A stretch of 63,978 bases of DNA, filler included, from an uncultured Myxococcia bacterium (lineage in GTDB: Bacteria > CAZTWC01): assembly GCA_964617105.1 (NCBI GenBank). It is 15 parts of 15 records of this genome, joined end to end, with 100 filler letters (N's around TTAATTAATTAA, not from the genome) between each part and the next. Parts side by side here need not be neighbours in the genome. Positions count along the whole stretch, not along the records: positions 40,231 to 44,551 come from CAZTWC010000307.1; positions 44,652 to 48,926 come from CAZTWC010000309.1; 13 more parts are not named here. The stretch is one strand, 5' to 3'. The notes below the pieces were generated by a model. It did no database searches. It was not told the origin of the DNA and saw only the letters and a program-made list of their open reading frames with translations. Shown one piece after another: positions 42 to 52,731 of this stretch; the stretch's first letter is position 1, and the number at the start of each line of letters is the position of its first letter. Position numbers and translations under genes: made by a program.

Positions 42-1274
42 TTGGATTGCCAATCCGACGAGTTGTGCGACAGTGGCATCTGCAACACCAAAGGCGGCCA
101 GGGGACCAGTTGCATGGATCAAAACCAATGCGCCAAAGGCTACATCTGCCAAGGTGGAGAATGCTATTTACACTTTGTGCCAGTTGGAGGTGGTGGCTCC
201 CAGGATACTTGTAAAACTGACACCGATTGTCCATCAGGTAGTCAATGCCTAAATAATCAATGTATTCCAAATAATTCTTGCCTGCATGATGCTGATTGTC
301 CCCCTGGACATTACTGTGACATGGGTCTTTGCCGTAAAATGCCGGAAACTGATCCTCACAAGGATGGTGTTATTGATGTTAGTGGCATGTGGTATACCCA
401 ATATTCATTTGACATGACCAATGCTTTGATTGGATTTCCCAAACTTGGCGGTCCTCTGGATAAACTGGACCAGTTGTTTAAGAACGGTTTTAATCTGAAA
501 AATAAGATCCCCATTATCGGAGATATAATTGATAAAGCAGTGGCCAACTATTTAAAATCCCGTTTCAAATCCGGGATTCCCGAGGTGATTACCGCTCTTA
601 ATAACATAGCCAATATGTTACAGACCTGGAAAGCCAAAGGAGAGATGCAACTTCGCCATCTGAATCCCAGGAATAAAATCTCCGGCACTGAGAACTGGAA
701 CAGTCTGATACTCTACTGGATTGACCAGTGTCCCATGGGTAGAGCCGATCCAAACTATCCTCAGTGCGCTGAACTTGATGTAGGCTTTAAGCATGCCGAT
801 GTAAAAATTGAGGTTTTCCCCTTCACCGGCTCGGTGTCTGGCAATACCTTTAACATGGATAACCGCAAAATTAAAATGGAAGTAAACAAACTAATTTCCT
901 ACCTGGTTAACCTGGTAATTAAAGTGACCACCGGACATCCAGACCTGAAAACCATGCTGAAAAAAAGTATTGATTGCACTGAAGTCCAAAAAGCAGTTGA
1001 AGGTTTAGCCTGTTCCATTGGTTACTGTGGCTCCTTGCAATTTGTCCAAATTGCCTGTAACCAGGCCAAAGATCCGGTTGCAGATCTGATTGGCGCCAAG
1101 ATTGATTCTCTAAAATCATCCGACAATGTCCTGGAATTTTCCGGATATGCTCAAATCGTCAGTGACAATAACCAGCCTCCTCAAAGCCTGGAGATGAAAA
1201 ATGGAGTGTTAAATGGAAAGGCCAAAGTGGTTTCCTCCGGCAAAACTACCGGTGACTGGTCGGCTACCAGGTAA
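42..1274 (+). CDS. Cys-rich repeat surface/secreted protein (Myxococcota-type); 5' end uncertain
   Basis: Four C-x-x-(D/Q)-x-x-C...C...G-x-C repeats followed by a ~300 aa globular domain. An in-frame TAG at 3-5 and a weak TTG start make the true start uncertain. Confidence 0.65.
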   Translation: MDCQSDELCDSGICNTKGGQGTSCMDQNQCAKGYICQGGECYLHFVPVGGGGSQDTCKTDTDCPSGSQCLNNQCIPNNSCLHDADCPPGHYCDMGLCRKMPETDPHKDGVIDVSGMWYTQYSFDMTNALIGFPKLGGPLDKLDQLFKNGFNLKNKIPIIGDIIDKAVANYLKSRFKSGIPEVITALNNIANMLQTWKAKGEMQLRHLNPRNKISGTENWNSLILYWIDQCPMGRADPNYPQCAELDVGFKHADVKIEVFPFTGSVSGNTFNMDNRKIKMEVNKLISYLVNLVIKVTTGHPDLKTMLKKSIDCTEVQKAVEGLACSIGYCGSLQFVQIACNQAKDPVADLIGAKIDSLKSSDNVLEFSGYAQIVSDNNQPPQSLEMKNGVLNGKAKVVSSGKTTGDWSATR

Positions 1275-1299
1275 AATTACACATTAATGAGGTATAATA

Positions 1300-2067
1300 T
1301 TGAAACCAGTTAACATTATTTTTCTTTTATTGCTCTTCTTTCTTACCCCTGGTTTGCTCAAGGCCAGCGATATAAATTGTGAATATCCAAATATCCTGAT
1401 TGTATTGGATAAATCGAGCTCCATGACCCACGGCATCTCTGGGGTCACCAAGTGGCAAATCGCCAAAGAGGCTATTGATACTTTCCTGACCACCAATCAG
1501 GCTAAAATTCGCTTTGGCTTGATGCTATTTCCCGATCCAGATAAATGCAATCCCGGAAAAGTTTTAGTGCACCTTAAAGAGAATAACCACCAAAATATTC
1601 TCTTGGAATTGTCCTCTCCCCCGCCAGTAGGAGGAAATTATACTCCTATGGCCCAAAGTCTCCAAAATGCCTCCAATTATTCTGGTTTGGCAGATATTTC
1701 CCGCCGTAATTATGTATTGCTGATTACCGATGGTTGGCAGTGGTGCGATCCCTATGATTCAGCCACTAGATTCACGCCGGTGGATGAAGTTACCAATTTG
1801 ACCCTAAAAAACATCTCCACTTTTGTGATAGGTTTTGGTGGTTCGGTTGATGTCCTAACCCTGAATAGATGCGCGGTTGCAGGAAAAACCCAAAAAGCCA
1901 ATTGCGATCCTCTTAGCAACGATGCAACTTCTAATGCAAACTGCTATTTTCAGGCAGACGACCAAAACGGTTTAGTCCAGGCTTTGACCAACATTGTCCA
2001 GATCATTACCAAAGAGATCTGTGATGGCAAGGACAACGATTGCGACGGGTTAACGGATGGAAAATGA
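1300..2067 (+). CDS. Secreted VWA-domain protein, N-terminal part (probably continuous with 2057-2836 across a 1-nt frameshift)
   Basis: Signal peptide; MIDAS motif DKSSS...YTP...ITDG; ends in the EICDGKDNDCDGLTD Cys/Asp motif. Confidence 0.8.
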   Translation: MKPVNIIFLLLLFFLTPGLLKASDINCEYPNILIVLDKSSSMTHGISGVTKWQIAKEAIDTFLTTNQAKIRFGLMLFPDPDKCNPGKVLVHLKENNHQNILLELSSPPPVGGNYTPMAQSLQNASNYSGLADISRRNYVLLITDGWQWCDPYDSATRFTPVDEVTNLTLKNISTFVIGFGGSVDVLTLNRCAVAGKTQKANCDPLSNDATSNANCYFQADDQNGLVQALTNIVQIITKEICDGKDNDCDGLTDGK

Positions 2068-2836
2068 GTCCTGTGAAACAGGAGCACTGTGTCTTTGTGG
2101 AAAATGTGCCGCACCTTGTTTTAACCACGAATGTAATTTTGAACAATTCTGCGTTAATGGTTTCTGTGTAACTGATCCCTGTTGCGGAAAAAAATGCATC
2201 GCTGGTTTCCATTGCATTGATGGCGCTTGCGCCAGTATATGCGCCCTTACTCCAATAGAATGTGCAGATGGTAAATACTGCGCCATGAACGAGCCATGTT
2301 CATCAGGAAAACCAGAAGAGTGTAAGATTGAATGCCGCCCGGATGACTGTTACTCTACGGAAACTCGCTGTAAAACCGGCGAACTTTGTATCAATGGCAA
2401 ATGTAAAATCGATATCTGCCGCCAGGTTTCCTGCCCCAAGGGAGGTTACTGTGACCAGGAAACTGGAAACTGTTTTCCGATATGCGACAACAACTCTTGC
2501 CCGGACGGTCAATCCTGCTCGAATGGCTTCTGCTCACCCGATGCCTGCGCTGGAGTCAAATGTGTTTATGGGAAGATGTGTGTTCAAGGAAAATGCACCA
2601 GCGACCCTTGCATTTCAACTGGCTGTCCGGCCGGACAAATTTGTCTTGAGGGTAAGTGTGTTGCCAATGCCTGTGAAGGAATAACCTGTCCTGATGATTC
2701 AGTTTGCCAAAAAGGGACCTGCATCTATCTATCCGACCTGCAAAATAATGGACCCGGCCAAAATACTGAAAACAATGATGACAATAACACCAACTCAGTT
2801 AACCCGGGGGGGTGTTCCTGTTCGGTATTGCCGTAA
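2057..2836 (+). CDS. Cys-rich repeat C-terminal part of the VWA protein, ending in GGCSCSVLP
   Basis: Repeated DPC..V.C..G..C..G.C units, then an Asn-rich linker and a terminal GGCSC motif. Confidence 0.75.
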   Translation: MENESCETGALCLCGKCAAPCFNHECNFEQFCVNGFCVTDPCCGKKCIAGFHCIDGACASICALTPIECADGKYCAMNEPCSSGKPEECKIECRPDDCYSTETRCKTGELCINGKCKIDICRQVSCPKGGYCDQETGNCFPICDNNSCPDGQSCSNGFCSPDACAGVKCVYGKMCVQGKCTSDPCISTGCPAGQICLEGKCVANACEGITCPDDSVCQKGTCIYLSDLQNNGPGQNTENNDDNNTNSVNPGGCSCSVLP

Positions 2837-3078
2837 CTCAACGAGCCAATCTTAACCCTGTGGGACGGGCTTATGGCTTTGAGTGCTCATATCGAAACCA
2901 ATGCGGCAGCAACATGATTGATTATGGACGCAAAAATCGTGTTCCTCTAGAAATATATTCTTGCCTAAAAAGCATTTTACCTTTATAGTATAAAAATATA
3001 ATAAAAGTACTACAATAATAAATACTGCCCAAATAGTTCCTGGCAACAAAGGCGGTATCTCTGACTAACACTATATTT

Positions 3079-4460
3079 ATGAATAAAATTAACTGGTTTT
3101 TGCTGCTGTTGATGGCCTTTTTTGTCCTATCCTGCGGGCAAAAAAACTATTCCGGTAAAAAAAGCACTCCAATAATCACCAATGGGGTTTTGGATTTATC
3201 CCATTGGGATTTTAAACTGGATGGACCCATCGCTTTGCGCGGCCAGTGGAAATTCAACTGGATGGCGGATAAGCCGGAGTATGCCCAACCCTATTATGAT
3301 GATTCTGCCTGGGATACCATTAAAGTGCCTGGCACCTGGAAACAAAAAACCGGTTCCAGCCAGGGATATGGATGGTACCGGCTGAAGGTAAAACTGCCAA
3401 CCAGATCCAAAGCCAAAACTAATCCGGCCTCCGCCCTGGCCACTAAACCAGACCGGATGTCCATCATGATCCCATATATACACACCGCGGCAACCATTTT
3501 TATTGATGGCCGCAAAGTTAACCAATCGGGCCGCCCCGGCCTTTACCAGGCAGATACTAAACCCCAGTTTTTACCTATGATGGTAAATTTTGATCTTAAT
3601 CGTCATATCAATTGGGTAAAATACTCAGATGTTATTCTGCCAGCCGCCTCTACCAGGGAGCAACACCTTCCTTCTCAAATTGTCATTGCTATCAAGGTGG
3701 CAAACTTCCATCATGACAAAGGGGGATTGACGATAACACCCAAACTTGGCTTTTCCTCTCAATTAACCCTACTATGCTTGCAGAAAGATATCCTGGGGTT
3801 GATGGTGCTGGGTATTTTGCTGATGATGGCCCTTTACCATTTTTTACTCTATTTTGGCCGCCGTCAAGAGAAGGGGTATTTGTGGTTTGGACTATCTTGT
3901 ATAACGATATTAACCCGTTATTTTTTCTCCTCATGTTATCCTGAGCGATTGTGGCCCGATTTTGATTCTATTGGTTATTATAACCTGCGGATGAAAATAG
4001 AGTATATAATCATGCCGCTTAACACCATAGTTTTTTTGCTGTTTTTGCGCTGTCTATTTAAAGAGGTTATGCATAAGCGGATATTACAGGTGTTGTTTGT
4101 GAGCGGAGGGTTATTTTGCATATTTATTGTTTTTGCCCCCATAATAACCATCACTGAGCAATTATCCCTGATTCAATTACAGGCACTTGTTTGCTCCTGC
4201 TATGCGGCTTATATTTTTATTCAGGCGGTTCGCCATCAGCAGGAAGCCGCCTGGTATATTCTGATAGGTGGATTCGTCTATCTTCTTGTTATTGTCAACG
4301 ACATCCTCTATTTTCAGCAGGTGATTGAAACATTTGTAATGCTTCCCTATGGCCTTGCGGTGTTTATATTTTCCCAGTCAGCAGTGTTGTCCATGCGGTT
4401 TGCCAACACTTTTCACCGGGCGGAAGGATTGAATATCCAACTGGGAGATGCCAACCAAAA
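3079..4460 (+). CDS. 7TM-DISM-type sensor with N-terminal sugar-binding-like domain (3' partial; probably kinase or other signalling output)
   Basis: Lipobox VLSC; LRGQWKF...VPGTW...GYGWYRL beta-sandwich motifs; about seven TM helices; runs into the contig end. Confidence 0.75.
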
Positions 4461-4560
4461 NNNNNNNNNNNNNNNNNNNNNNNNNNNNNNNNNNNNNNNN
4501 NNNNTTAATTAATTAANNNNNNNNNNNNNNNNNNNNNNNNNNNNNNNNNNNNNNNNNNNN
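4461..4560. other. Artificial contig linker (first of 14: also 8971-9070, 13466-13565, 17934-18033, 22382-22481, 26830-26929, 31278-31377, 35705-35804, 40131-40230, 44552-44651, 48927-49026, 53276-53375, 57621-57720, 61960-62059)
   Basis: Identical 100-nt N44-TTAATTAATTAA-N44 spacers with stops in all six frames; genes are cut at each one; contig lengths decrease monotonically. Confidence 0.98.
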
Positions 4561-4812
4561 GATAAACAAGATGAACTTGATGCTGGTTGTATGTATGATG
4601 TGTTGGAGGGAGAAATAATCCCGCTTTATTTCCAACGGTCTGAAGGGAACGTCCCTCACGGCTGGGTCCAGTGTATGAAGGAATCTATTAAAGCCGTAAC
4701 CCGCCAGTTTAATACCCACCGAATGGTCAAGGAATACTTTGAAAGTCTCTATATACCGGCCGGATCCACTGAACAAGATGTCTGGCATCTGGGCCAAGAT
4801 CTGGTATCGTAA
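4561..4812 (+). CDS. glgP: Alpha-glucan (glycogen) phosphorylase, C-terminal fragment
   Basis: QDELDAGCMYDVLEGEIIPLYF...WVQCMKESI...FNTHRMVKEY...LYIP matches the phosphorylase C-terminus. Confidence 0.85.
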   Translation, partial: DKQDELDAGCMYDVLEGEIIPLYFQRSEGNVPHGWVQCMKESIKAVTRQFNTHRMVKEYFESLYIPAGSTEQDVWHLGQDLVS

Positions 4813-5801: not shown

Positions 5802-7454
5802 CTAATTTGCAGCCGAAGTCAAAGCCTGTTCCACTATATATCTGGCCTCATCAATTATGCTGTCAAGGTGACTTTGGCTTTTGAAACTCTCGGCGTAAAT
5901 TTTATAAATATTTTCAGTTCCAGATGGCCGGGCGGCAAACCATCCGTTTTTAGTAGTAACTTTAAGTCCACCGATAGGTGCCTGGTTGGCCGGCGCTTTA
6001 GTCATTTTATCTTCAATGGGTTCTCCTGCCATTGTAATGGCGCTCACCATTTGTGGAGACATTTTTTTTAAAACCGCTTTCTGTTGCGGGGAGCAAGGAG
6101 AATCTATACGAGTATAAAATGGGTGGCCAAGTTTCTCCGCCAGCCTCTGGAAATGCCATCCCGGATCCTTGCCAGTTAAAGCGGTTATCTCTGCTGCCAA
6201 CAAGTTCATTATAATACCATCTTTGTCTGTGGTCCAAACCTTACCGTTATGGCGCAAGAAACTGGCGCCAGCACTCTCTTCACCACCAAAAGCATATTCC
6301 CCATTTAACAACCCAGGTACAAACCATTTGAAACCCACCGGCACTTCAGCAATTTTTCTGCCCAAATCTCGTGCCACCCGATCTATTATTGCACTTGAAA
6401 CCAGAGTTTTTCCAATCATTGCCGTGAAGGGCCATTGGCGCCGGTTAAACAAATAATCTATAGACACTGCCAAATAATGGTTAGGGTTGAGCAGTCCAGA
6501 AGATGGGGTAACAATTCCGTGCCGGTCACCATCAGGATCATTGCCAAAGGCGATATCAAAATCATCTTTTATGTTGGTCAGGCTGGCCATGGCATACCCG
6601 CTGGAGCAATCCATTCTAATTTTACCATCGTGATCAAGAGTCATAAAGGAAAAAGCAGGTTCGATCTTTTGGTTTACCACAGTCAAATCTAAGTGATAGA
6701 ATTCGGTCAAACGATTCCAGTATTGGATGGTTGAACCGCCCAGAGGATCCGCCCCGATTTTTATCTTTTCTCCTACTATTGGTTCAAAATCGATAATATT
6801 TTTCAGGTCGCTTAAATAAGGTTGAATAAAATCATAGAGGTGGGTATTTTCTTCTTTTAAAGCATCCTTAAACGGCATTCTTTTTATGAAATTTTTAATC
6901 CCGCTTTTCAAAATCTGGTTGGCTCTATCCTGGATTCCTGCAGTAATCTTAGTATCCGCCGGCCCACCGTTAGGAGGATTGTATTTAATTCCACCATCAC
7001 TTGGTGGATTATGCGAAGGAGTAATCACTATGCCGTCAGCCAGGTGCTCTTTTTTCCCATGGTTATAGGATAAAATAGCGTGAGAAATCACCGGGGTTGG
7101 AGTATAACCATCTTCTGACTGGATAAACACCTCAACGCCATTGGCGGCCAACACCTCCAGGGCGCTCTCCTGGGCCGGCCCTGATAAGGCATGGGTATCC
7201 TTGCCCATGTATAGAGGGCCGTCAATCCCATTGGTCTTCCGAAAGTCGCAGATGGCCTGGGCAATAGCGTATATATGAGCCTGGTTGAATGAGCCATGGC
7301 TGGATGATCCTCTATGTCCGCTGGTGCCAAAGGAAACCTGCTGGGATTGTTCTTGAAAAGCAGGTTCGATTGAGTAATAATCATCCAATAATTTATTAAT
7401 ATCAATTAACATTGATTGAGGGGCCTTTTGGCCGGCTAATTTATGAGTAGGCAT
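5802..7454 (-). CDS. pgm: Phosphoglucomutase (alpha-D-glucose-1,6-bisphosphate-dependent)
   Basis: FGTSGHRG, TPSHNP, DPDGDRH, GEESAG and RPSGTE motifs. Confidence 0.97.
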   Translation of the reverse strand: MPTHKLAGQKAPQSMLIDINKLLDDYYSIEPAFQEQSQQVSFGTSGHRGSSSHGSFNQAHIYAIAQAICDFRKTNGIDGPLYMGKDTHALSGPAQESALEVLAANGVEVFIQSEDGYTPTPVISHAILSYNHGKKEHLADGIVITPSHNPPSDGGIKYNPPNGGPADTKITAGIQDRANQILKSGIKNFIKRMPFKDALKEENTHLYDFIQPYLSDLKNIIDFEPIVGEKIKIGADPLGGSTIQYWNRLTEFYHLDLTVVNQKIEPAFSFMTLDHDGKIRMDCSSGYAMASLTNIKDDFDIAFGNDPDGDRHGIVTPSSGLLNPNHYLAVSIDYLFNRRQWPFTAMIGKTLVSSAIIDRVARDLGRKIAEVPVGFKWFVPGLLNGEYAFGGEESAGASFLRHNGKVWTTDKDGIIMNLLAAEITALTGKDPGWHFQRLAEKLGHPFYTRIDSPCSPQQKAVLKKMSPQMVSAITMAGEPIEDKMTKAPANQAPIGGLKVTTKNGWFAARPSGTENIYKIYAESFKSQSHLDSIIDEARYIVEQALTSAAN

Positions 7455-9689: not shown

Positions 9690-10963
9690 AAAAATTAAAA
9701 GCCTATATTGTAAAAACCAACACTATTATCTCACCCTTTGGGGAAGATGTTGCCGAAAGTCTGGTAGGCTGGCAAAACCTGGCCGAAAATCGGAAAGAGA
9801 TTTTCCTAAGGTTAGGGATGGAAGCAGAGTATATCGATCCAGGCCAAACCATCTCTGATAGTAGATATTTGTTGATTTTTGATTATGTGTACGTCAGCCA
9901 AAAACTACTCAAAGATTTTCTCAATTCAAGTAAAAAAGGTGATAAAAGCCAATCTCTGGCCGTAATAAAAAATGCAGCAGTGGAATATCTTTTGCCCCTA
10001 CAGGAACTGGCGGAATACACTGCCCCGGGGCAAAAAAAACCAGCAATAATTTACGACATTTTTATGGTTTCTGGCGCTTTGCCAAAAGCGGACAACTACC
10101 TTGATCTGAGAAAACATTTACATCAAATTTGCCAACCTCAATTGGTTGCCACCAGGGAAATAACCGTTGAAGTGCGCCTCCCTACCCTGCCCGGACAACC
10201 GGCCTTTATGCTGTTTCCCATCACTTCCAGCCTGGCCTGCCATATTACCAATTGGGTACATATTCTCTGGCTCAACCACCTGATGTTTGGAGTCCGCTGG
10301 TTAGAAAGAATTTATAAGCACAAGGGCTGGACCTCTTACAAGTTGTTAGAAGCCCTGGCCATTCAGCGGAGTATAAAACCCTGGAAACTGCTGCAAAAAA
10401 TGGTGGTGATTGGCAAAGGATGCCATATCCACCCCACCGCCTACCTGGAAGCGGCCATGATTGGCGACAATGTCACTATCGGCGCTCAGGCCTGTATTCG
10501 CAACTCTTTTGTGGGACCCGGCTCTAACCTGGCGGATCACACAGTACTACTCAACTCCACCCTGGGTGCTGATTGCTGCACCATGGAAGACACCTTCTTA
10601 GTTCAGTGCGTTTCCTATCCCAGGGCGATTATTGGCAACTGGAAACTCCAGGTTTCGCTCATTGGCCGGGGGGCATATATCAATCCCTGGGCCGGCTTTA
10701 TCGATGCTATTTTCCAGGGCCATGTCAAAGTTAAGCATAATGGGGAAATAGTTTCCTCCAGGCGGGCTTTTTTGGGTAGTTGTATTGGTCACGAAGCCCA
10801 GGTGGGAGGTAAAGTCTTGATTCAGCCGGGCCGCGAAATACCCAACCACTACAGAATTGTCATGCGGCCGGACGAAGTGATAAGTTGTATTCCAACCAAT
10901 CTACCGCCGGGGGAACCTTTGCACCGTCAAAATGGGACTCTGGTACTCCATAAGAAGGATTAG
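9686..10963 (+). CDS. Hexapeptide-repeat protein with degenerate nucleotidyltransferase-like N-terminal region
   Basis: C-terminal GKGCHIHPTAYLEAAMIGDNVTIG repeats; overlaps the stop of the previous gene. Confidence 0.75.
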   Translation: MKKLKAYIVKTNTIISPFGEDVAESLVGWQNLAENRKEIFLRLGMEAEYIDPGQTISDSRYLLIFDYVYVSQKLLKDFLNSSKKGDKSQSLAVIKNAAVEYLLPLQELAEYTAPGQKKPAIIYDIFMVSGALPKADNYLDLRKHLHQICQPQLVATREITVEVRLPTLPGQPAFMLFPITSSLACHITNWVHILWLNHLMFGVRWLERIYKHKGWTSYKLLEALAIQRSIKPWKLLQKMVVIGKGCHIHPTAYLEAAMIGDNVTIGAQACIRNSFVGPGSNLADHTVLLNSTLGADCCTMEDTFLVQCVSYPRAIIGNWKLQVSLIGRGAYINPWAGFIDAIFQGHVKVKHNGEIVSSRRAFLGSCIGHEAQVGGKVLIQPGREIPNHYRIVMRPDEVISCIPTNLPPGEPLHRQNGTLVLHKKD

Positions 10964-10966
10964 GGT

Positions 10967-11743
10967 ATGAATTTTATCGGCGATTATATAAAAGGAGTAC
11001 TGTTTTTCTTCAAAGGACTCTCTCTAATCAGGAGTAACCTGGAGTTAAAACGGATTGCCTTTTGGCCGTTTTTAATCAACTGTTGCCTTTATATAGCCTA
11101 TATCATCACCGCCATTGGCAATTACCAGTTGTTTGTGCGACTCTATCACCTGGTTACACCCCCTTTTGACAAATGGTATAATATCTTTTATATCCCCTTT
11201 GGCGTTGTCGCGGTTTTTATCGGAATCTTAACCATGTTTTTCATTTTTTTCCTGGCCGCCAACCTGATATCTTCGGTGTTTAACGACAAACTGGCGCAAA
11301 AAACCCTGATTTTGCAAGGGTTCACTTTTGACCAGAAAAAAGGCGGCTTGAAAACCAATCTCCATAATGGGTTGGCGGAGATTTTATACACCCTGAAATC
11401 GGAGTTGAAACGGGGAGTTACCTTTTTAGCGGTGCTTGGCATTTTGCTGCTACTATCCCTATTGCCCGGACTAGGTGTTTTAATCTATTCGGTTGGAGGT
11501 GTGGTGGTGGGTATATTTTTCTTGGCTTTCAATTTTTTAGACTACACTTTATGTCTGGAAAAACTTTCATTTAAAGCCAAACGGGGAATTATCACCACTA
11601 ACCCATGGTTATCAGCTGGATTTGGAACTATAGTTTTCCTGCTTTTACCCATACCGATAATAAATATTATGATCCCACCGGTGGCTGTGGTGGCAGCAGC
11701 ACTAATTTATGCTGAAACCAAATCCGGGGGCCAGGAAAGATAA
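10967..11743 (+). CDS. CysZ/EI24 family membrane protein
   Basis: Multi-TM; ANLISSVFNDKLA, FLDY and GFG...IPIIN...PP..V motifs. Confidence 0.8.
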   Translation: MNFIGDYIKGVLFFFKGLSLIRSNLELKRIAFWPFLINCCLYIAYIITAIGNYQLFVRLYHLVTPPFDKWYNIFYIPFGVVAVFIGILTMFFIFFLAANLISSVFNDKLAQKTLILQGFTFDQKKGGLKTNLHNGLAEILYTLKSELKRGVTFLAVLGILLLLSLLPGLGVLIYSVGGVVVGIFFLAFNFLDYTLCLEKLSFKAKRGIITTNPWLSAGFGTIVFLLLPIPIINIMIPPVAVVAAALIYAETKSGGQER

Positions 11744-32544: not shown

Positions 32545-33057
32545 ATGAATATACTGCAAAAAATCAACCATTATTTCGCCAAAGNNNNNNNNNNNNNNNN
32601 NNNNNNNNNNNNNNNNNNNNNNNNNNNNNNNNCATTTTTACAAGTTACCTTGCGCAATGTTTTCGGCAGCGGTTTTACCTGGGCCGATGTCTTTATCAGA
32701 CATCTGGTGCTTTGGGTTGGTTTTATCGGCGCCTCCCTGGCCACCATGGAAGGCCGGCACATCAACATCGATATCGTTTCCAAACTACTATCACCCTCGC
32801 AACGGCGCTGGTCAGAGTTGGTAACCAACTTATTTGCCACTTTTATCTCTTTTATGCTCTCTTATGCATCCTACCTGTTTGTCGCCATGGAAAAAGAAGC
32901 GGGTTCCAAGTTGTTTATGGAGATTCCCACCTGGATATTCCAATTGATCCTTCCGCTAGCATTTTTTGTTATGGGGTTTAGATTTTTTACCAGGTTTTTA
33001 GAAACTGCCCTTGCTCATCACCTGCAGCATAAGCACAATAGGGGAGGTCAAAAATAG
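32545..33057 (+). CDS. dctQ: TRAP transporter small permease (internal N gap 32585-32632)
   Basis: LWVGFIGASLA...RHINID motif. Confidence 0.9.
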   Translation: MNILQKINHYFAKXXXXXXXXXXXXXXXXXFLQVTLRNVFGSGFTWADVFIRHLVLWVGFIGASLATMEGRHINIDIVSKLLSPSQRRWSELVTNLFATFISFMLSYASYLFVAMEKEAGSKLFMEIPTWIFQLILPLAFFVMGFRFFTRFLETALAHHLQHKHNRGGQK

Positions 33058-44517: not shown

Positions 44518-44789
44518 CCAGAACGTGATGATGTATATTTAACCGCTGAAGNNNNNNNNNNNNNNNNNNNNNNNNNNNNNNNNNNNNNNNNNNNNTTAAT
44601 TAATTAANNNNNNNNNNNNNNNNNNNNNNNNNNNNNNNNNNNNNNNNNNNNTGAGACGAGCCACAATATTTGATGGAAAAAAGGAGAGAAATGTGCAAGA
44701 TAAGTAAGGGACGTTCAGGAAATTCCATCATTTACCTCGCTAAAAATATATGAATTCAGAACTCCTGTTCGTCCCCAGAACAGGATTAT

Positions 44790-45350
44790 ATGTTACCAGA
44801 ATTTCTTAAAACGTCCAACCTGTTTAAAATTCTTTATCGTATTGATCAGGAACTTGCGCAAAAGTGTAGTCAAGACAAGTGTGTTCATTGCGGTAGTCCG
44901 TTATATCAATCCAATTATCAGCGAAAGCCGCGAGGTGGTCCAGAAGGGATACCGGAAGAATATCTTCTTAGGCACAGTTTATGCTGTGGTCAGGAGAGTT
45001 GCCGCCGGAGAAAATTGCCTCCTTCCTGCCGATTTTTTGGTCGGAGAGTATATTGGGGTTGCATAATTTTGGTAGTGATGTCTCTCCGTCAAAGTAGGCC
45101 GGATGGAGCAAGCGCCAGAAAACTTAAACGTTTATTTGGTGTTACCCGCCCGACGATAATCCGTTGGATGATCTATTTCAGGGAGCATTTTCCTATTAGT
45201 GAAAAATGGAGGCAAATACGCGGCAGAGTAGGTCATCAAGTAAAAGATAATGAATTGCCGGGCGGTCTTGTTTCTTATTTTTATAAACATTCAGCAACCA
45301 ATAAGGAAGGGATGGTCAACTGTCTTCGTTTGCTTGCCACGGGCGAATAG
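44790..45350 (+). CDS. Zn-ribbon plus HTH accessory protein of the element
   Basis: CVHCG...CC...C; SARKLKRLFGVTRPTIIRW helix-turn-helix. Confidence 0.75.
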   Translation: MLPEFLKTSNLFKILYRIDQELAQKCSQDKCVHCGSPLYQSNYQRKPRGGPEGIPEEYLLRHSLCCGQESCRRRKLPPSCRFFGRRVYWGCIILVVMSLRQSRPDGASARKLKRLFGVTRPTIIRWMIYFREHFPISEKWRQIRGRVGHQVKDNELPGGLVSYFYKHSATNKEGMVNCLRLLATGE

Positions 45351-45503
45351 ATATTGTCCAAAATCATGCTAAATGAAGGGAGATATCGGTCACGCAAAAG
45401 TTGTGCAGTTCCCACGGCATATAAAGTTGGATATAGTGATTCCAGAAAGCAGGGGGAAGATTTTTGTTCAAGAATCATTAAAATTCCGGAAAGGAGTCAC
45501 AAA

Positions 45504-47009
45504 ATGGGGGAAGAATCGAATGGTCGGTTAACCACATGGGAGCAGTTGCGATTTTCAATCGTGGGAGAGTTGTTGGCCAGACCGCCGGAGGCAGGAGAAT
45601 TGCAATCAAGATTGAAAGAGTTGGCCTCCAGACGTTATCGTCATCCGACCAAGAAAAGCACCTGGATTACTTTTGGAGTGTCAACCATTGAGCGCTGGTA
45701 TTACCAGGCACTGAGGTCACCCAATCCTATAGAGGTTTTATCCAGGCAAATCCGTTCTGATGCGGGAATTACCAGGGTAATAAGTCCAGCCTTATTAGTT
45801 GAGATAGAGAAGCAATATGGGAGTTATAAGAATTGGAGTTATCAACTTCATGCCGATAATTTATCAGCATTGGTGGAAAAGCGGCCGGAGTTGGGTAAAG
45901 CGCCATCTTATTCAACATTATTAAGGCATATGAAGGGACGTGGCTGGACAAAATTACGTTCTTGTAAAAAAGGTAAAAAGCAAACAGCCGGTCAAAAGAA
46001 GGCACAAGAACGGCTTGAGCAGCGAGAAGTGCGGGGTTATGAGTCAGCATATGTTCATGCCCTCTGGCATCTGGATTTTCATGAAGGCAGTCTGCGGGTA
46101 ATAGAACCGGATGGCTGTTGGTATTCACCTCATGTGCTTGGTATTTTAGATGATTGTTCCAGGTCATGTAGCCATATTCAATGGTATCTAAATGAGACGG
46201 CAGAAAATTTGGAACATAGTTTGACCCAGGCGTTTTATAAGCGTGGACTTCCCAGCGGATTGATGACAGATAATGGTTCGGCTATGATGGCGTGGGAGAC
46301 ACGAAATGGCCTTGAAAGGCTGAGTATACTTCACGAAACTACATTGCCATACAGTCCATATCAAAATGGCAAACAAGAGAGTTTTTGGGGACAGATAGAA
46401 GGTCGCCTGTTGCCAATGCTTTGTAAGGTTGAACCTTTGACTCTGGAATTTTTAAATCAGGCAACCCAGGCATGGGTGGAACAGGAGTATAATAACTCGA
46501 AACACACAGAAATCGGCACCACCCCGATAAAGAGATTACTCGAAGTTTCCGATGTTTCCAGGCCATCTCCAGACAGAGAGACAATAAATTTTGCCTTTAC
46601 TATCCAACAAACCCGGATACAGCGCAGAAGTGATGGCACCATCCAAATAGAAGGTGTTAGGTTTGAAGTTCCATCAAGGTTTCGTCATTTTCAAAAACTT
46701 ACCGTTTGTTACAAAAGATGGGATCTATCTATTGCGTATCTGGTAGATGCCAAGACAGGTAATAAATTGGCCACTATCTATCCTCAAGATAAGACTAAAA
46801 ATGCTGACGGGCGTAGACGAACTTTAGTGGCACCAATTGAAGATTCACAACTGCCTAAGCCCTCAAATAATAGTGATCCAATACCACCTCTATTGCGTAA
46901 ATATTTGGCTGATTATGCTGCCACAGGTTTGCCGCCAGCCTATATTCCCAAAGATGAAATAAAAGATTTGTCTACAATTACAAAGGAGGCGCAAAATGAA
47001 CAACAATAA
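45504..47009 (+). CDS. DDE (rve) transposase with Mu-like C-terminal domain
   Basis: WHLDFH...DDCSR...TDNGS...PYQNGKQE; start at 45504 chosen from the AAGGAG RBS. Confidence 0.92.
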   Translation: MGEESNGRLTTWEQLRFSIVGELLARPPEAGELQSRLKELASRRYRHPTKKSTWITFGVSTIERWYYQALRSPNPIEVLSRQIRSDAGITRVISPALLVEIEKQYGSYKNWSYQLHADNLSALVEKRPELGKAPSYSTLLRHMKGRGWTKLRSCKKGKKQTAGQKKAQERLEQREVRGYESAYVHALWHLDFHEGSLRVIEPDGCWYSPHVLGILDDCSRSCSHIQWYLNETAENLEHSLTQAFYKRGLPSGLMTDNGSAMMAWETRNGLERLSILHETTLPYSPYQNGKQESFWGQIEGRLLPMLCKVEPLTLEFLNQATQAWVEQEYNNSKHTEIGTTPIKRLLEVSDVSRPSPDRETINFAFTIQQTRIQRRSDGTIQIEGVRFEVPSRFRHFQKLTVCYKRWDLSIAYLVDAKTGNKLATIYPQDKTKNADGRRRTLVAPIEDSQLPKPSNNSDPIPPLLRKYLADYAATGLPPAYIPKDEIKDLSTITKEAQNEQQ

Positions 47010-47847
47010 AATCATACAAGCATTATACGGGCTAAAATGGAATCCATTTTTACCGGAAATTCCGATTGAATCTCTCTGGATACCTCCTGGAGTCGAAGAC
47101 TTTTTCTTCAGTGTGGAAGATTTTGTGATAGATGGTGGCTTTACCCTTATCTGTGGAGACCCTGGGCTTGGCAAATCAAAAATATTGCAACTGTTGGCCC
47201 ACCGTTTACAGCGCCTCGATGATGTTGTTGTTGGTGTAATGGAACGGCCTCAGAGCAGTCTCAATGATTTCTACCGGGAATTGGGAGAGTTGTTTGGCGT
47301 AAATCTTTCACCAGCAAATCGTTATGGTGGTTTCAAGACTCTCAGGGAACGATGGAAAAACCACATAAAAACTACTCTGTTTAGACCAATTTTGATCATT
47401 GATGAAGCACAAGAGATGATAGCACCCTGTCTTAATGAAATTCGCTTGCTTGGCAGTGCAGATTTTGACTCTGTTTGCCTTTTAACCACTGTAATTTGCG
47501 GGGACATGAGAATGCCTGAACGTTTCCGATCCCAATCACTAATGTCGTTAGGAACCAGAATCAGGCTGCGAATGACACTACATGCGTATCCCAGAAATTT
47601 ATTACTTGAGCATTTGGAACATTCACTTGTGCAGGCGGGAGCCCCCAATCTAATGACTAAATCGCTCAAAGAAACACTCTGCGATCATTGTGCTGGGAAT
47701 CTACGCTTGCTCAATACAATGGCAGCAGAAATGCTGAACAAAGCCGCTAAAAAAGAATTAACCCAACTCGATGAAAAACTTTATCTGGAAACATTCTCAC
47801 GCCAACCTACCGGCCGTAATTTAAGGATAAAAAAGTATGAATCATAA
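46996..47847 (+). CDS. ExeA/TniB-like AAA+ ATPase (transposition helper)
   Basis: LYGLKWNPF; Walker A GDPGLGKS; Walker B IIDEAQ; GNLR. Confidence 0.9.
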   Translation: MNNNKIIQALYGLKWNPFLPEIPIESLWIPPGVEDFFFSVEDFVIDGGFTLICGDPGLGKSKILQLLAHRLQRLDDVVVGVMERPQSSLNDFYRELGELFGVNLSPANRYGGFKTLRERWKNHIKTTLFRPILIIDEAQEMIAPCLNEIRLLGSADFDSVCLLTTVICGDMRMPERFRSQSLMSLGTRIRLRMTLHAYPRNLLLEHLEHSLVQAGAPNLMTKSLKETLCDHCAGNLRLLNTMAAEMLNKAAKKELTQLDEKLYLETFSRQPTGRNLRIKKYES

Positions 47848-48853
47848 TATCTTACCTGTTTTTCTGGCGGCTGATATTGACAAACAACCGCAAGAAGAAA
47901 ATTGGCTAATTAAACATATTTGGACAAATATGGCGGTAGGTATTATTGGTGGTGCTCCCAAATGTTGTAAATCCTGGTTCGGTCTCGATATGGCTATCAG
48001 TATTGCATCTGGAACACCATGCCTGGACCATTTCCCAATACAATACAAAAAAGGGCCAGTCCTTATTTATCTTGCCGAAGATGCTTTGGGCTCTGTCCGC
48101 TCTCGTATCGAAAGTATCTGTCAACACCGCAAATTAAAGATTGAACATCTGCCTATTTACGCCATCGCCTCACCTGTTCTAAGGCTGGATATCGAATCTG
48201 ATCGTCAGCGTCTGATGAAAACTATCGATAAATTAAAACCCAAAATGCTCCTTCTAGACCCTCTGGTGAGAATGCACAGGTTGGATGAAAACTCTGCCCA
48301 GGATATCTCCGGATTGCTTGGATATCTCAGAGAAATGCAAAGAAAATTTAACCTGGCGGTTGTGCTTGTCCATCACTCAAGTAAAAAAAATCGCTCAAAC
48401 CCAGGACAAGCCCTGAGAGGCTCTTCTGACTTACATGCTTTTGGCGATTCAAATGCGTATCTGATAAGAAAAAATGACAAATTGATCCTTACTGTGGAAC
48501 ACAGGGCAGCACCCTGTCCTGAACCTTTCTCTTTGCAATTAGTGACTAAACCAGACGGAAAACATACCCATCTTCGGGTTTTTAATAAATCTTTGCCAGA
48601 TAACTCTTCATCTACCAATAATCTTGACCAAATTATCTTTGAACTTCTTGACCGTTGTAACTCTCCTCTTTATAAAAAAGATATCAGAAAGCACCTCAAA
48701 GTTAACAACCAAAGACTGGGACAAGTCTTGGCCGGAATGGAAAAACAAGGCATGATCGAAAAAACAAAATCCGGATGGAAAAAAGTTGTAAGCAAAACTG
48801 TTACGGATAGTAAAAATCAAAAACAATCAGTTCAACTCCAATTGCCCATATAA
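47837..48853 (+). CDS. AAA_25 / RepA-like RecA-fold ATPase with C-terminal HTH
   Basis: WLIK.IW; atypical Walker A GAPKCCKS; YLAED; LLLDP; VHHSSK; LRGSS. Confidence 0.85.
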   Translation: MNHNILPVFLAADIDKQPQEENWLIKHIWTNMAVGIIGGAPKCCKSWFGLDMAISIASGTPCLDHFPIQYKKGPVLIYLAEDALGSVRSRIESICQHRKLKIEHLPIYAIASPVLRLDIESDRQRLMKTIDKLKPKMLLLDPLVRMHRLDENSAQDISGLLGYLREMQRKFNLAVVLVHHSSKKNRSNPGQALRGSSDLHAFGDSNAYLIRKNDKLILTVEHRAAPCPEPFSLQLVTKPDGKHTHLRVFNKSLPDNSSSTNNLDQIIFELLDRCNSPLYKKDIRKHLKVNNQRLGQVLAGMEKQGMIEKTKSGWKKVVSKTVTDSKNQKQSVQLQLPI

Positions 48854-49026
48854 ATAGTATAGTTATGCAGTGTAAAATCATTACAAATTTCGTAAATCCG
48901 GGTGAAACGGAGGCAGGCTCTGCTGGNNNNNNNNNNNNNNNNNNNNNNNNNNNNNNNNNNNNNNNNNNNNTTAATTAATTAANNNNNNNNNNNNNNNNNN
49001 NNNNNNNNNNNNNNNNNNNNNNNNNN

Positions 49027-51120: not shown

Positions 51121-52731
51121 CTATCCTCTCCTACCAGACAACCTGAATATTATTGATTTGAGCGCCTGGTATTCAACTCCTCCTAAAAGCATGGTCAAAA
51201 GGAGTGCCAAAAGCACATAAACTCCGCCGGTCACAAAAAGTTGCAGGAGAGCACCCCAGTGAGTCAAAGGGTCTAAGGGAAGCAGTTTAAACTGAATAAT
51301 AAACATATAGGTAAAAATAAAAGCCACTAAAGAGGCTGCCGCACCTTTAAAAATGGTTTTTATTATAGGAGCGGTCCAAAAACTACTCTGCCGGCCGTAT
51401 CGTAGCCGGTAATCTATCAAAGTTACCATAAACATCAGCCAAAAACTGGCGGCAGTGGCCAGGGCCAACCCCTCTCCACCTAACATCTTTTTCAATCCAT
51501 AATAGATAAATATTGACAACAGGGCCACCAGGCTGTTTACCATCATAACCCGTAAAGTATTACTCCGGGCATAGTACCCGTTTATCAAAATCTGTTGAGC
51601 GGCAAAGGCGGGGATGCCAAGGGAAAGATATTGCAGTAAATTAGCGGTATAGATGGCGTTAGCTCCGCTAAAGGCGCCGCGCTTAAAGATCAGGGTAACA
51701 GCAGGCAAAGATATCAAAGCCAATCCGCCCGCCAAAATAAAGGTAATAAACAACACTCCCCGGATAGTTTTAGTAAGCACCCTGGAAAAATCTTTTAAAT
51801 CTTTCTGCTGTAAAAGTTGGGACAGGTAGGTTAATGAGGCCTGGCCAGCGGTCTGTCCCACCAGAGCGATAGGCACAAGCATCAGAATTCGGGCATACCT
51901 CAGGCAAGTTATGGTTCCTTCGGAAATATCGCTCTGGGCTCCAAAATAGCGGCTGTACCATTCATCCACCGTCAACAGGGTGATGCCCAGCATCAGAGGG
52001 ATGTTCAACTTGATAAAATTGACAAAATGGGGTGAACGGAAATTGAGGTTAAAACTATACTTAATGGTTCCCCGGGATAAAACAAAAGGCAGTAAAAAAG
52101 GTCCCAAAAAAGCGCCGGCCAAAGCACCCAGGCTAAAACCAGCGATGCCCCACCAGGCGGCCAGAAAAAGTCCGGTGCTGATGATGCCCAGGTTGTATAT
52201 CGCCCCCCCCAGAGAGCCTCTGAAATCACCGCGGGCCCTCAAGGTGGCGTTAATCATACCGCCGATGGTAAAAAATATTTGAGCCGGAATAACTATGCGG
52301 GTCAACTTTACGGTAAGGGCGAATTTTTCCGGGTAAGCAGTAAAATCGGGGTACAGAAGCGCAGTTAATTGAGGGGTAAAAATCTCTGCTCCAATGACCA
52401 ACAATATAATTATTATGGACATGGGCGCCAGGATACTGGAAAATACCTTCGAACCCTCCTGGTTGAAGGTGTCCTCTTTTATCCCGGAATGGTGCCTGGT
52501 CAGAATAGGTACCAACACCAAACCAAAGGCGCCGGCTGCCAACATGTAGTTAAGGATATCGGGAATTAAAAAAGAGGCATTGTAAACATCGGTACTTCTG
52601 GCTGCTCCAAATTTCCAGGCTATAGCCATCTCTCTAAACAAGCCAAAAAAACGACTCACCAGGTAGGCAAAAGCCAGGAAACCCGCGCCCGAAATGATTT
52701 TATTTATTTTGTCGTGCATTTTAACTACCAT
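51121..52731 (-). CDS. murJ: Lipid II flippase MurJ
   Basis: SRFFGLFRE...FGA...D.YNASF.IPD; MOP-family multi-TM topology. Confidence 0.9.
   Translation of the reverse strand: MVVKMHDKINKIISGAGFLAFAYLVSRFFGLFREMAIAWKFGAARSTDVYNASFLIPDILNYMLAAGAFGLVLVPILTRHHSGIKEDTFNQEGSKVFSSILAPMSIIIILLVIGAEIFTPQLTALLYPDFTAYPEKFALTVKLTRIVIPAQIFFTIGGMINATLRARGDFRGSLGGAIYNLGIISTGLFLAAWWGIAGFSLGALAGAFLGPFLLPFVLSRGTIKYSFNLNFRSPHFVNFIKLNIPLMLGITLLTVDEWYSRYFGAQSDISEGTITCLRYARILMLVPIALVGQTAGQASLTYLSQLLQQKDLKDFSRVLTKTIRGVLFITFILAGGLALISLPAVTLIFKRGAFSGANAIYTANLLQYLSLGIPAFAAQQILINGYYARSNTLRVMMVNSLVALLSIFIYYGLKKMLGGEGLALATAASFWLMFMVTLIDYRLRYGRQSSFWTAPIIKTIFKGAAASLVAFIFTYMFIIQFKLLPLDPLTHWGALLQLFVTGGVYVLLALLLTMLLGGVEYQALKSIIFRLSGRRG

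Follow-up and report, generated by a model that had tools for sequence, protein, structure and literature searches.

Within a 63,978-nucleotide (nt) stretch of DNA from an uncultured Myxococcia bacterium (GenBank assembly GCA_964617105.1), which is called the window below, the contig at positions 44652-48926 is the left ~93-95% of a four-gene element of the Tn6049 family. The fourth gene encodes a RecA-fold ATPase of the AAA_25 family that resembles the RepA and DnaB helicases, and in related elements the same gene, sometimes followed by a gene for a DnaG-type primase, travels as an optional cassette placed behind the AAA+ ATPase gene of the transposon. We are highly confident of the identity of the element and its genes, i.e., a Tn6049-type element with Mu-like parts. 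We propose that a portable RepA/DnaB-like helicase, with or without a primase, serves the replication step of a Mu-like transposition, and we put the probability of this reading, identity and role taken together, at about one half. The three-gene core of the element was already known; our analysis suggests that the helicase gene (with or without the primase gene) inside Tn6049-like, Mu-like and IS21-like transposons is new, and such a gene was found undescribed in full-text literature in which subscription journals are thinly covered, ISfinder lying outside the scope of the search. The hand-over of the strand-transfer intermediate to the replisome has, to our knowledge, been detailed only for phage Mu in E. 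coli, where it proceeds via host restart proteins.

The stretch 44652-48926 is exactly one contig of 4275 bp bounded by N44-TTAATTAATTAA-N44 spacers. The window (1-63978) comprises about 16 contigs of 1.2-4.5 kb in falling order of length with such spacers between them, and an additional 48-N gap is present at 32585-32632; since the window consists of contigs joined by spacers, genes on either side of a spacer are unlinked. Four open reading frames (ORFs) are carried on the same strand of the contig, and the four genes named in the original prediction (a Zn-ribbon/helix-turn-helix (HTH) gene, a DDE transposase gene, an AAA+ ATPase gene and an overlapping AAA_25 gene with an odd Walker A motif) were all found where it had placed them. 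The transposase and AAA_22 genes overlap by 14 nt, and the AAA_22 and AAA_25 genes by 11 nt. The features of the contig are as follows:

44652..44676, + strand: left terminal inverted repeat, TGAG-N15-TGATGG, matching the termini from identical copies and many loci
44725..44730, - strand: second TGATGG, inverted, a candidate subterminal transposase-binding site from comparison of the motif with relatives
44790..45350, + strand: ORF1, 186 amino acids (aa), Zn-ribbon-like and HTH-like, conserved first gene of Tn6049-type elements
45354..47009, + strand: DDE (rve) transposase, longest ORF 551 aa (rve, E=9.9e-10)
46996..47847, + strand: AAA_22 AAA+ ATPase, MuB-like (AAA_22, E=4.1e-19)
47837..48853, + strand: AAA_25 RecA-fold ATPase, RepA/DnaB-like, with a C-terminal winged helix (AAA_25, E=5.4e-32)
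48854..48926, + strand: start of the 3' non-coding arm, the right terminus being expected ~0.2-0.4 kb further on from the ends of relatives

The termini of the family were defined from identical copies with different flanks as 5'-TGAG-N15-TGATGG ... CCATCA-N15-CTCA-3'. The sequence TGAGACGAGCCACAATATTTGATGG at the start of the contig matches the left termini defined in this way in other genomes and, judged by that match, the first base of the contig (44652) is the true left terminus. An element end at 5'-TGAGACG had been proposed earlier from the TG...CA pattern; the termini fixed by identical copies place it on stronger ground. The contig of a relative, L016, likewise starts exactly at TGAG (L followed by a number is a locus label; 160 loci and the window contig make up the 161 sequences analysed). 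A loose regular expression (8-22 nt between the motifs) applied to the whole window detected a left terminus only at 44652, plus a weaker TAATGG variant at 52044, and the right-end motif was found nowhere else in the window. In relatives, a second TGATGG is found further inward, by ~24 nt at the right end and by ~45 nt at the left, where it may have a binding role. The 3' end of the contig (...GGCAGGCTCTGCTGG) is not a terminus, as no CCATCA-N15-CTCA follows the last gene, and an exact 36-nt pattern taken from this end had no match in metagenome contigs. Past the stop codon of AAA_25, 73 nt are left in the contig. L001, a 4308-bp element and the closest of the complete relatives, has its right end 227 nt beyond that codon, and the similarity between L001 and its 96%-identical kin L099 ends at the right terminus of L001. 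Just to the left of the L001 element, L001:860-930 resembles the end of another transposase gene, which may account for the target duplication not being seen at this locus.

The definition of ends and target duplications from multiple copies, which the original prediction had put forward as a check, yielded TGAG...CTCA ends and duplications of 3-6 bp. A Desulfosarcina genome contains a three-gene form of 3445 bp in six copies (99.97-100% identical), and an Eisenbacteria genome three copies of ~3270 bp; the three-gene relatives as a whole are 3.27-3.52 kb in length, with inverted repeats (IRs) and duplications of 3-6 bp. The four-gene form is found in a Verrucomicrobiae genome at 4498-4540 bp, with the AAA_25 gene at 10255-11280 between element ends at 7106 and 11645. 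Searching that whole genome revealed four full-length copies (99-100%), a fifth that is 44 nt short on the left side, and several fragments; 3-bp duplications flank both full copies that were checked. Duplications at recent copies are variable within the range of 3-6 bp (act, catt, gtt, tcttt, gtag, gcg; ttg, gtc; ctc, gacg; caccac), no flanking duplication was found at the L048 copy, and no common site was found among the target duplications and flanks of the copies. The AAA_25 gene belongs to the element and lies inside its ends, because it is enclosed by the termini of multi-copy relatives and recurs with the transposase; the prediction had named a gene outside the ends as the contrary case, which the multi-copy relatives do not show. 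Decayed copies were also seen, i.e., a broken AAA_25 gene at L063:10323-11176 (two tblastn pieces) and an element at L056:7148 without the first ~44 nt of its left end.

Public contigs from four runs of two studies, labelled as marine metagenome and seawater metagenome, are near-identical to 44652-48926 (0-6 differences). Three of the runs contain the whole stretch in a single piece, and the longest piece in the fourth corresponds to 44652-48858. The window DNA may itself derive from some of them, so they do not count as independent support. Variant short public contigs map to 48829-48926, which explains the break of the contig at 48926. One public contig of 4607 nt (run X1, record 1) carries the whole of 44652-48926 at its positions 325-4599, with 324 nt preceding the left terminus and 8 nt beyond the 3' end of our contig; the 324-nt lead could be a circle junction, a tandem junction or plain flank. 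A three-gene relative, L061:1-4465, shows a 77-nt terminal overlap, the sole one among the 161 sequences and an assembler's sign of a circle or tandem.

The distribution of the fourth gene was studied in two locus sets. A transposase-profile scan of one genome per species gave 601 matched stretches, 590 of them confirmed, and an AAA_25-profile scan of metagenome contigs gave 598, with 586 confirmed; the best 80 from each scan were analysed. Both families are large, with at least 8000 candidates at E<=0.001 for the transposase in a word-index search, and at least 7560 (of 8000 scored) for the AAA_25 protein at the same threshold. The best 120 of the transposase candidates share 59-67% identity with the window protein, and most transposase relatives are on contigs of 2-6 kb, in keeping with repeats that assemble alone. 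In tblastn searches with the four window proteins, ORF1 was detected in 76 and the AAA_22 gene in 73 of the 80 transposase loci, the misses being mostly contigs that end early; L065 is a long locus without an ATPase gene. A second, distant rve match (25-26% identity) is present a few kb from the Tn6049-type element at L035:9251-10926 and L022:430-888, accompanied at L035 only by a distant AAA_22 match (30% identity), so these two loci hold more than one kind of two-component transposon.

The AAA_25 gene was present in 18 of the 80 transposase loci and absent from 38; another 17 loci were too short and 7 had no ATPase match, and several of the 80 rows are copies from a single genome. The 18 carriers are labelled as Neomarinimicrobiota, Thermodesulfobacteriota, Desulfuromonadaceae, Verrucomicrobia, Victivallales, Terriglobia, Solirubrobacterales and Dormiibacterota. 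A transposase tree was built from 71 distinct full-length rows (quick IQ-TREE run, LG+G4, identical and incomplete rows dropped), and on it the gene occurs in 25 of 39 rows of one major clade and in 5 of 32 rows of the clade that contains the window. The expectation of a conserved four-gene synteny held for the three-gene core, which is very common in metagenomes, but not for the AAA_25 gene (18 of 56 classifiable loci): integral as it is to the element, this gene is optional and can be exchanged.

The position of the cassette is constant. In all 74 AAA_25 loci with at least 300 nt of upstream sequence (from the best 80 of the 586 confirmed stretches), it is found directly behind a transposon AAA+ gene; in 66 of them the directly upstream gene was identified as AAA_22-type by tblastn with the window protein, and in the remaining 8 the upstream ATPase was recognized with other queries or Pfam, among them L159 (a partial match) and L130 (IstB). 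The upstream AAA_22 proteins fall into two classes, one of Tn6049 type with 46-70% identity to the window protein, accompanied by a Tn6049-type transposase and ORF1, and a distant one with 21-29% identity. Of 45 Tn6049-type loci, 28 show an overlap between the AAA_22 and AAA_25 genes (26 by 4 nt, ATGA-type), and a further 16 have a spacing of 0-60 nt. Annotation of example loci distinguished five transposon backbones, i.e., a Tn6049-like one (A), three other MuA/MuB-like ones (B, C and D) and one that is IS21-like (E). In backbone B, an ORF of 230-310 aa without assignment is followed by an rve transposase of ~465 aa, in which the Mu C-terminal match is weak, and by AAA_22; backbone C has a ~650-aa transposase with rve and Mu-transpos_C domains and then AAA_22; backbone D (L097) consists of a small HTH ORF, a 426-aa transposase and AAA_22. 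Backbone E (L130:984-4639) has a transposase with rve and a strong Mu-transpos_C_2 match, followed by IstB (PF01695, E=1.6e-61) with the cassette directly after it. In L130 the cassette is followed by an ORF that is open-ended and matches Phage_integrase weakly (E=0.004), and a 558-aa DUF6399 protein (E=2.5e-41) is encoded downstream of the transposase, AAA_22 and AAA_25 genes of a backbone-C locus (L124:7208-8884).

The cassette has moved between these backbones. In a tree of 87 distinct complete AAA_25 proteins, labelled by backbone in advance according to upstream-ATPase identity, the Tn6049-type label requires at least 5 changes on well-supported branches alone, and the window protein is placed among backbone-B proteins, outside the large Tn6049-type clade. 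The approximately unbiased (AU) test rejects a single clade for the 39 Tn6049-type versus the 35 distant rows (log-likelihood difference 199, p=4.9e-5); a single capture of the cassette is rejected by the trees. At two loci with different backbones, L094 (B) and L097 (D), the DNA is 85% identical from a point within ~10 nt of the AAA_25 start codon through the next gene, whereas the parts upstream of AAA_25 differ.

When the AAA_25 family profile was searched against the Protein Data Bank (PDB), the RSF1010 RepA helicase 1g8y was matched at E=7.8e-13 and the tail of the protein resembled small winged helices (1e-3); Pfam finds a weak MarR-like C-terminus. The best fold matches of the structural model (predicted local distance difference test (pLDDT) 83.8) were DnaB and RepA, with RadA, KaiC and Dmc1 likewise at E ~1e-10; RepA was the target covered most fully (TM-score normalised to RepA, 0.71). 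The Walker A motif of the window protein is GGAPKCCKS, and GGxPKxxK[S/T] is present in 85 of the 87 cassette proteins, no motif being found in 2. At the position preceding the Walker A Lys, Cys predominates (62 proteins), followed by Gly (11), Ala (8), Ser (2) and Tyr (2), and the Walker A Lys and Ser/Thr, the glutamate of AED and the Walker B aspartate show little or no variation. As the variant Walker A is common to the cassette proteins and the other motifs are kept, the "odd" P-loop is a trait of the clade, not a sign of decay. To judge from profile and model, the AAA_25 protein possesses the RecA-fold core of RepA/DnaB-like helicases, with ring formation and unwinding activity predicted. 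In the plasmid collection no AAA_25 orthologue was found; identity is 25-28% for the best matches, some of which are RepA helicases of IncQ type.

A DnaG-type primase match was detected 3' of the cassette in 13 of 99 AAA_25 rows, the window included (L078, L083, L084, L086, L087, L088, L090, L091, L094, L097, L099, L103 and L110), and the CHC2 Zn-ribbon and Toprim domains were confirmed by Pfam in L086, L087, L078 and L097. The primase-bearing cassettes are distributed over backbones A, B and D. The L078 element, of Tn6049 type, has five genes and a right terminus located after the primase gene, and a primase remnant of ~50 aa is left in L099, a close kin of the window element. A downstream primase had been suggested as something to look for; it exists in relatives but not in this contig.

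The first three genes of the contig are, by sequence comparison, the core of Tn6049, a transposon that has been named but is little studied in mechanism. The window transposase and the Tn6049 transposase share 48% identity over residues 62-525 (84%, E=2e-125), and the best transposase matches in the plasmid collection, 47-48% identical over 84-86%, are on Paraburkholderia and Cupriavidus plasmids. The Tn6049 transposase is encoded by "IS481 family transposase" genes on C. metallidurans CH34 plasmids pMOL28 and pMOL30 and on P. aeruginosa plasmid pHS87a; on pMOL28 the gene is preceded by a 546-bp "transposase" ORF and followed by an "AAA family ATPase" gene. Residues D241, D306 and E342 of the window transposase are invariant among 18 sequences. 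Its homologues align from residue ~46-62 onward, and it is plausible from this alignment that the ATG at 45504 (M51) is the true start. Among the homologues Pfam detects rve in 18 of 18, HTH_32 in 15 and a weak Mu-transpos_C in 8, and in PDB searches the profile matched retroviral integrase cores at 2e-6 and the N-terminal DNA-binding region of ShTnsB at E=0.008. The domains of the transposase are arranged in a MuA/TnsB-like order. The best NCBIfam model is IS481 (E=1e-24); membership of the IS481 family was rejected, as the score of 87.6 bits is below the equivalog cut-off of 224 bits and the element has four genes. No TnsA, TniQ or TnsD match was found with Pfam or NCBIfam in any of the four window proteins.

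The AAA_22 ATPase has a GDPGLGKS Walker A and a DEAQ Walker B motif. Its family profile matched MuB (8xvb) at E=3e-6 across most of the AAA+ module (profile positions 31-260), while the match to ShTnsC was at 0.06. AAA_22 and ATPase_2 are the only Pfam families matched by the window protein, and an IstB/IS21 identity was discarded, no IstB_IS21 match being present at E up to 0.01. The earlier description of the element as Mu/IS21-like therefore holds for the combination of a transposase with an AAA+ ATPase, with the qualification that this ATPase is MuB-like and not IstB-like.

ORF1 has no Pfam or NCBIfam match of its own, and its counterpart in Tn6049 is annotated as a transposase. Cysteines C31, C34, C65, C66 and C71 are invariant among 21 homologues, in which Pfam detects weak HTH_23 (14 of 21) and weak HTH_28 (10 of 21) matches in the C-terminal part; in the model (pLDDT 74.7), the N-terminal part resembles a zinc ribbon and the C-terminal part is helical and HTH-like. 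The suggestion that ORF1 is a TniQ analogue found no support. TniQ was absent from the Pfam matches of ORF1 and its 21 homologues, the ORF1 profile matched only AlpA among PDB sequences (E=0.16), Foldseek of the model against the PDB gave no match at E<=0.001, and a wider fold search had no TniQ or TnsD among the matches listed, all of which were weak (best Z 4.2, the NudC zinc ribbon) and which include HTH effector domains at Z<=3.9. A DUF6431 assignment, carried by some lower-ranked Atlas clusters (with neighbours termed "hypothetical"), was not confirmed by Pfam on the 21 homologues. The first ORF of backbone B (L087:409-1143 and relatives) has invariant Cys and His residues and an R-x-R-K-T-G-P motif, and ORF1 has Y-x-R-K-P-R-G; homology of the two was rejected (hhalign probability 0.7%), despite an R-K-x-x-G-P common to both by eye. 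In the three-gene relative L061 the ORF1 homologue is opposite in strand to the transposase, unlike all other loci.

We propose the following course of transposition for these elements. The transposase, with ORF1 helping at the ends, would pair the TGATGG sites, and the MuB-like ATPase would coat or capture target DNA and activate strand transfer. Following strand transfer, the target-bound AAA+ ATPase would help to put the AAA_25 helicase on the forked intermediate, where in the five-gene forms a DnaG-type primase would join it. Replication through the element could then start without host restart and loader proteins, and such independence would suit an element that spreads across many phyla. 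A more specific version, in which the AAA+ target-binding ATPase doubles as a helicase loader, as DnaC does for DnaB, and the cassette has been captured repeatedly by at least five lineages, is put forward tentatively and as a possibility we would not favour on present analysis; it would offer a reason why the cassette is always directly behind the AAA+ gene. The earlier suggestion that the helicase supports replicative transposition or target choice fared differently in its two parts: the primases of relatives give circumstantial support to the first, the function of the helicase being predicted, and for the second no common site was seen at the copies.

Several observations weigh against a role of the helicase in replicative transposition. 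The three-gene forms are multi-copy and commoner than those with the helicase gene (38 versus 18 of the 56 classifiable loci), so the gene is dispensable, and its presence or absence has changed at least 9 times on the transposase tree (14 rows of unassigned state excluded). The matching duplications on both sides of the copies look like simple insertions and are not in themselves a sign of replicative transposition, and no resolvase gene is present in the element. The transposase core scores nearest to the IS481 and IS3 NCBIfam models, and the IS481 and IS3 families are generally regarded as copy-out-paste-in elements. Cys in place of the second Walker A Gly (62 of 87 proteins) is unusual for an active P-loop. 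Primase is absent from 86 of the 99 AAA_25 rows, and in the window contig no primase was found within the 73 nt past the AAA_25 stop. The right end of this very element is missing as well, public contigs extending only 8 nt past 48926.

These points have to be set against four other explanations. The cassette could be selfish or host-directed cargo, such as a piece of the replication module of a plasmid or satellite, or a gene with a defence or anti-defence function, tolerated only behind the ATPase gene because an insertion anywhere else would disrupt the element; it is indeed optional, often lost and sometimes decayed (the broken gene of L063, the primase remnant of L099), and it moves between backbones as cargo does. 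We consider this unlikely, as all 74 cassette loci among the best 80 of 586 confirmed have it directly behind a transposon AAA+ gene with none free-standing or plasmid-like, the plasmid collection is without an orthologue (best 25-28% identical), and the 4-nt ATGA-type overlap with the ATPase gene is kept in 26 of 45 loci. It is rather more doubtful that the AAA_25 protein is a regulator or target chooser in the role of TniQ, TnsD or TnsE, its winged helix reading a DNA site or structure and its ATPase switching on the MuB-like ATPase. Such a role would fit the conserved C-terminal winged helix, a variant Walker A that could mean slow, switch-like hydrolysis, the tight coupling of the AAA_25 gene to the AAA+ gene and the lack of any other target selector visible in the element, but the copies have duplications and flanks without a common site, the three-gene forms insert without an AAA_25 gene, and the repeated pairing with a DnaG-type primase points to DNA synthesis instead.

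An improbable third explanation is that the helicase, with the primase where present, makes an excised or copied-out circle into a small replicon in the manner of the IncQ RepA, the winged helix binding an origin in the 3' arm; the effect would be a higher copy number of the donor and not an action at the target. The nearest solved relative of the AAA_25 protein is in fact a plasmid replicative helicase, the IS481/IS3-like scores of the transposase core agree with a circle, the 4607-nt public contig has about the expected size of the full element and could be a circular permutation of it, and the L061 contig has its 77-nt terminal overlap. The 324 nt in the 4607-nt contig may, however, be ordinary flank, and no right-end-to-left-end junction pattern was found in the 161 sequences searched (160 loci and the window contig). 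Moreover, the 3' arm of the three-gene forms is of about equal length (~290 nt), leaving no evident extra origin region, and a replicon does not require the strict post-AAA+ position observed on five backbones. Finally, the assembly is very fragmented and the four-gene contig might be a chimera of a three-gene element and an unrelated gene, but we regard the chance of this as negligible, given that the stretch recurs with 0-6 differences in contigs from four runs of two studies, in three of these runs as one piece, and that the same overlapping gene arrangement recurs in many independent records.

Should the cassette act in transposition as we propose, a compact four- or five-gene system would be at hand for examining how a MuB- or IstB-type ATPase is linked to helicase loading, and the cassette may explain how such elements work across many phyla. 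If the AAA+ ATPase is also the loader, the elements would have a self-contained start of target-primed replication, independent of host restart proteins. In either case, transposons that are very abundant in the environment appear to encode their own helicase and sometimes a primase; the fourth gene is now annotated just as "AAA family ATPase" or "hypothetical protein", and the elements are a common source of orphan contigs of 3-6 kb in metagenome assemblies.

The closest known system is Tn6049, which was reportedly first named in a 2009 paper. Like the window element, it has a small ORF, an rve transposase gene and an AAA ATPase gene (gspA) in one order on one strand, and it shares with relatives of the window element short IRs, multiple copies and short target duplications. 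PMC2864759 gives Tn6049 as 3.5 kb, with 12 copies in CH34 and the gspA ATPase gene in each, and for the pHS87a copy 12-bp imperfect IRs and a 4-bp duplication are given in PMC4739549. Placing the published IRs on pMOL28 resulted in a Tn6049 of 3517 bp with a TATGG duplication, compared with at least 4275 bp for the window element, which has the fourth gene. The Tn6049 IRs are TGTGCATAAGCA, against TGAG-N15-TGATGG in the window, and in Tn6049 the ATPase gene is followed by a hypothetical ORF of 216 bp, with AAA_25 absent. The claim of a little-characterised transposon class is therefore valid for the mechanism, which is unstudied, and for the helicase-bearing form, of which no description turned up in the literature covered, and has to be withdrawn for the three-gene core.

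Mu (MuA/MuB) and Tn7 (TnsB/TnsC) resemble the window element in having an rve transposase with N-terminal HTH domains and an ATPase of the MuB/TnsC kind; the TniA/TniB pairs of Tn5053 and Tn552 are relatives of MuA/MuB and TnsB/TnsC. The TGAG...CTCA ends with repeated TGATGG in the window family, for which binding is predicted, recall the Mu-like arrangement of TG...CA ends with several inner sites. Unlike elements of the Mu/Tn7 type, whose duplication is fixed at 5 bp, the relatives of the window element vary between 3 and 6 bp, and the element has no TnsA, TniQ or resolvase gene, is far smaller, and carries an extra Zn-ribbon/HTH gene. Mu depends on host restart proteins and host DnaB; while Mu thus uses the helicase of its host, the window element encodes a predicted helicase of its own. 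IS21 has the same two-component design of a DDE transposase and an AAA+ ATPase, and in L130 the cassette is directly behind a true IstB, the helper ATPase of IS21, but the window ATPase is of the AAA_22/MuB-like kind and its transposase is not IstA-like by NCBIfam. IS481 supplies the best NCBIfam transposase model, and the Tn6049 transposase is annotated accordingly; IS481 elements are single-gene, however, and the window element, at 87.6 bits versus the 224-bit cut-off, has four genes including an AAA+ ATPase. For the cassette itself, the nearest systems are RSF1010 RepA and the DnaB-DnaG pair, which it resembles in profile and fold matches and, in some cassettes, in the addition of a CHC2 and Toprim primase. 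The AAA_25 protein differs from plasmid RepA in sequence (~28% identity), in its additional C-terminal winged helix and in the Walker A Cys, and where RepA is encoded on plasmids, the AAA_25 gene is carried inside transposons.

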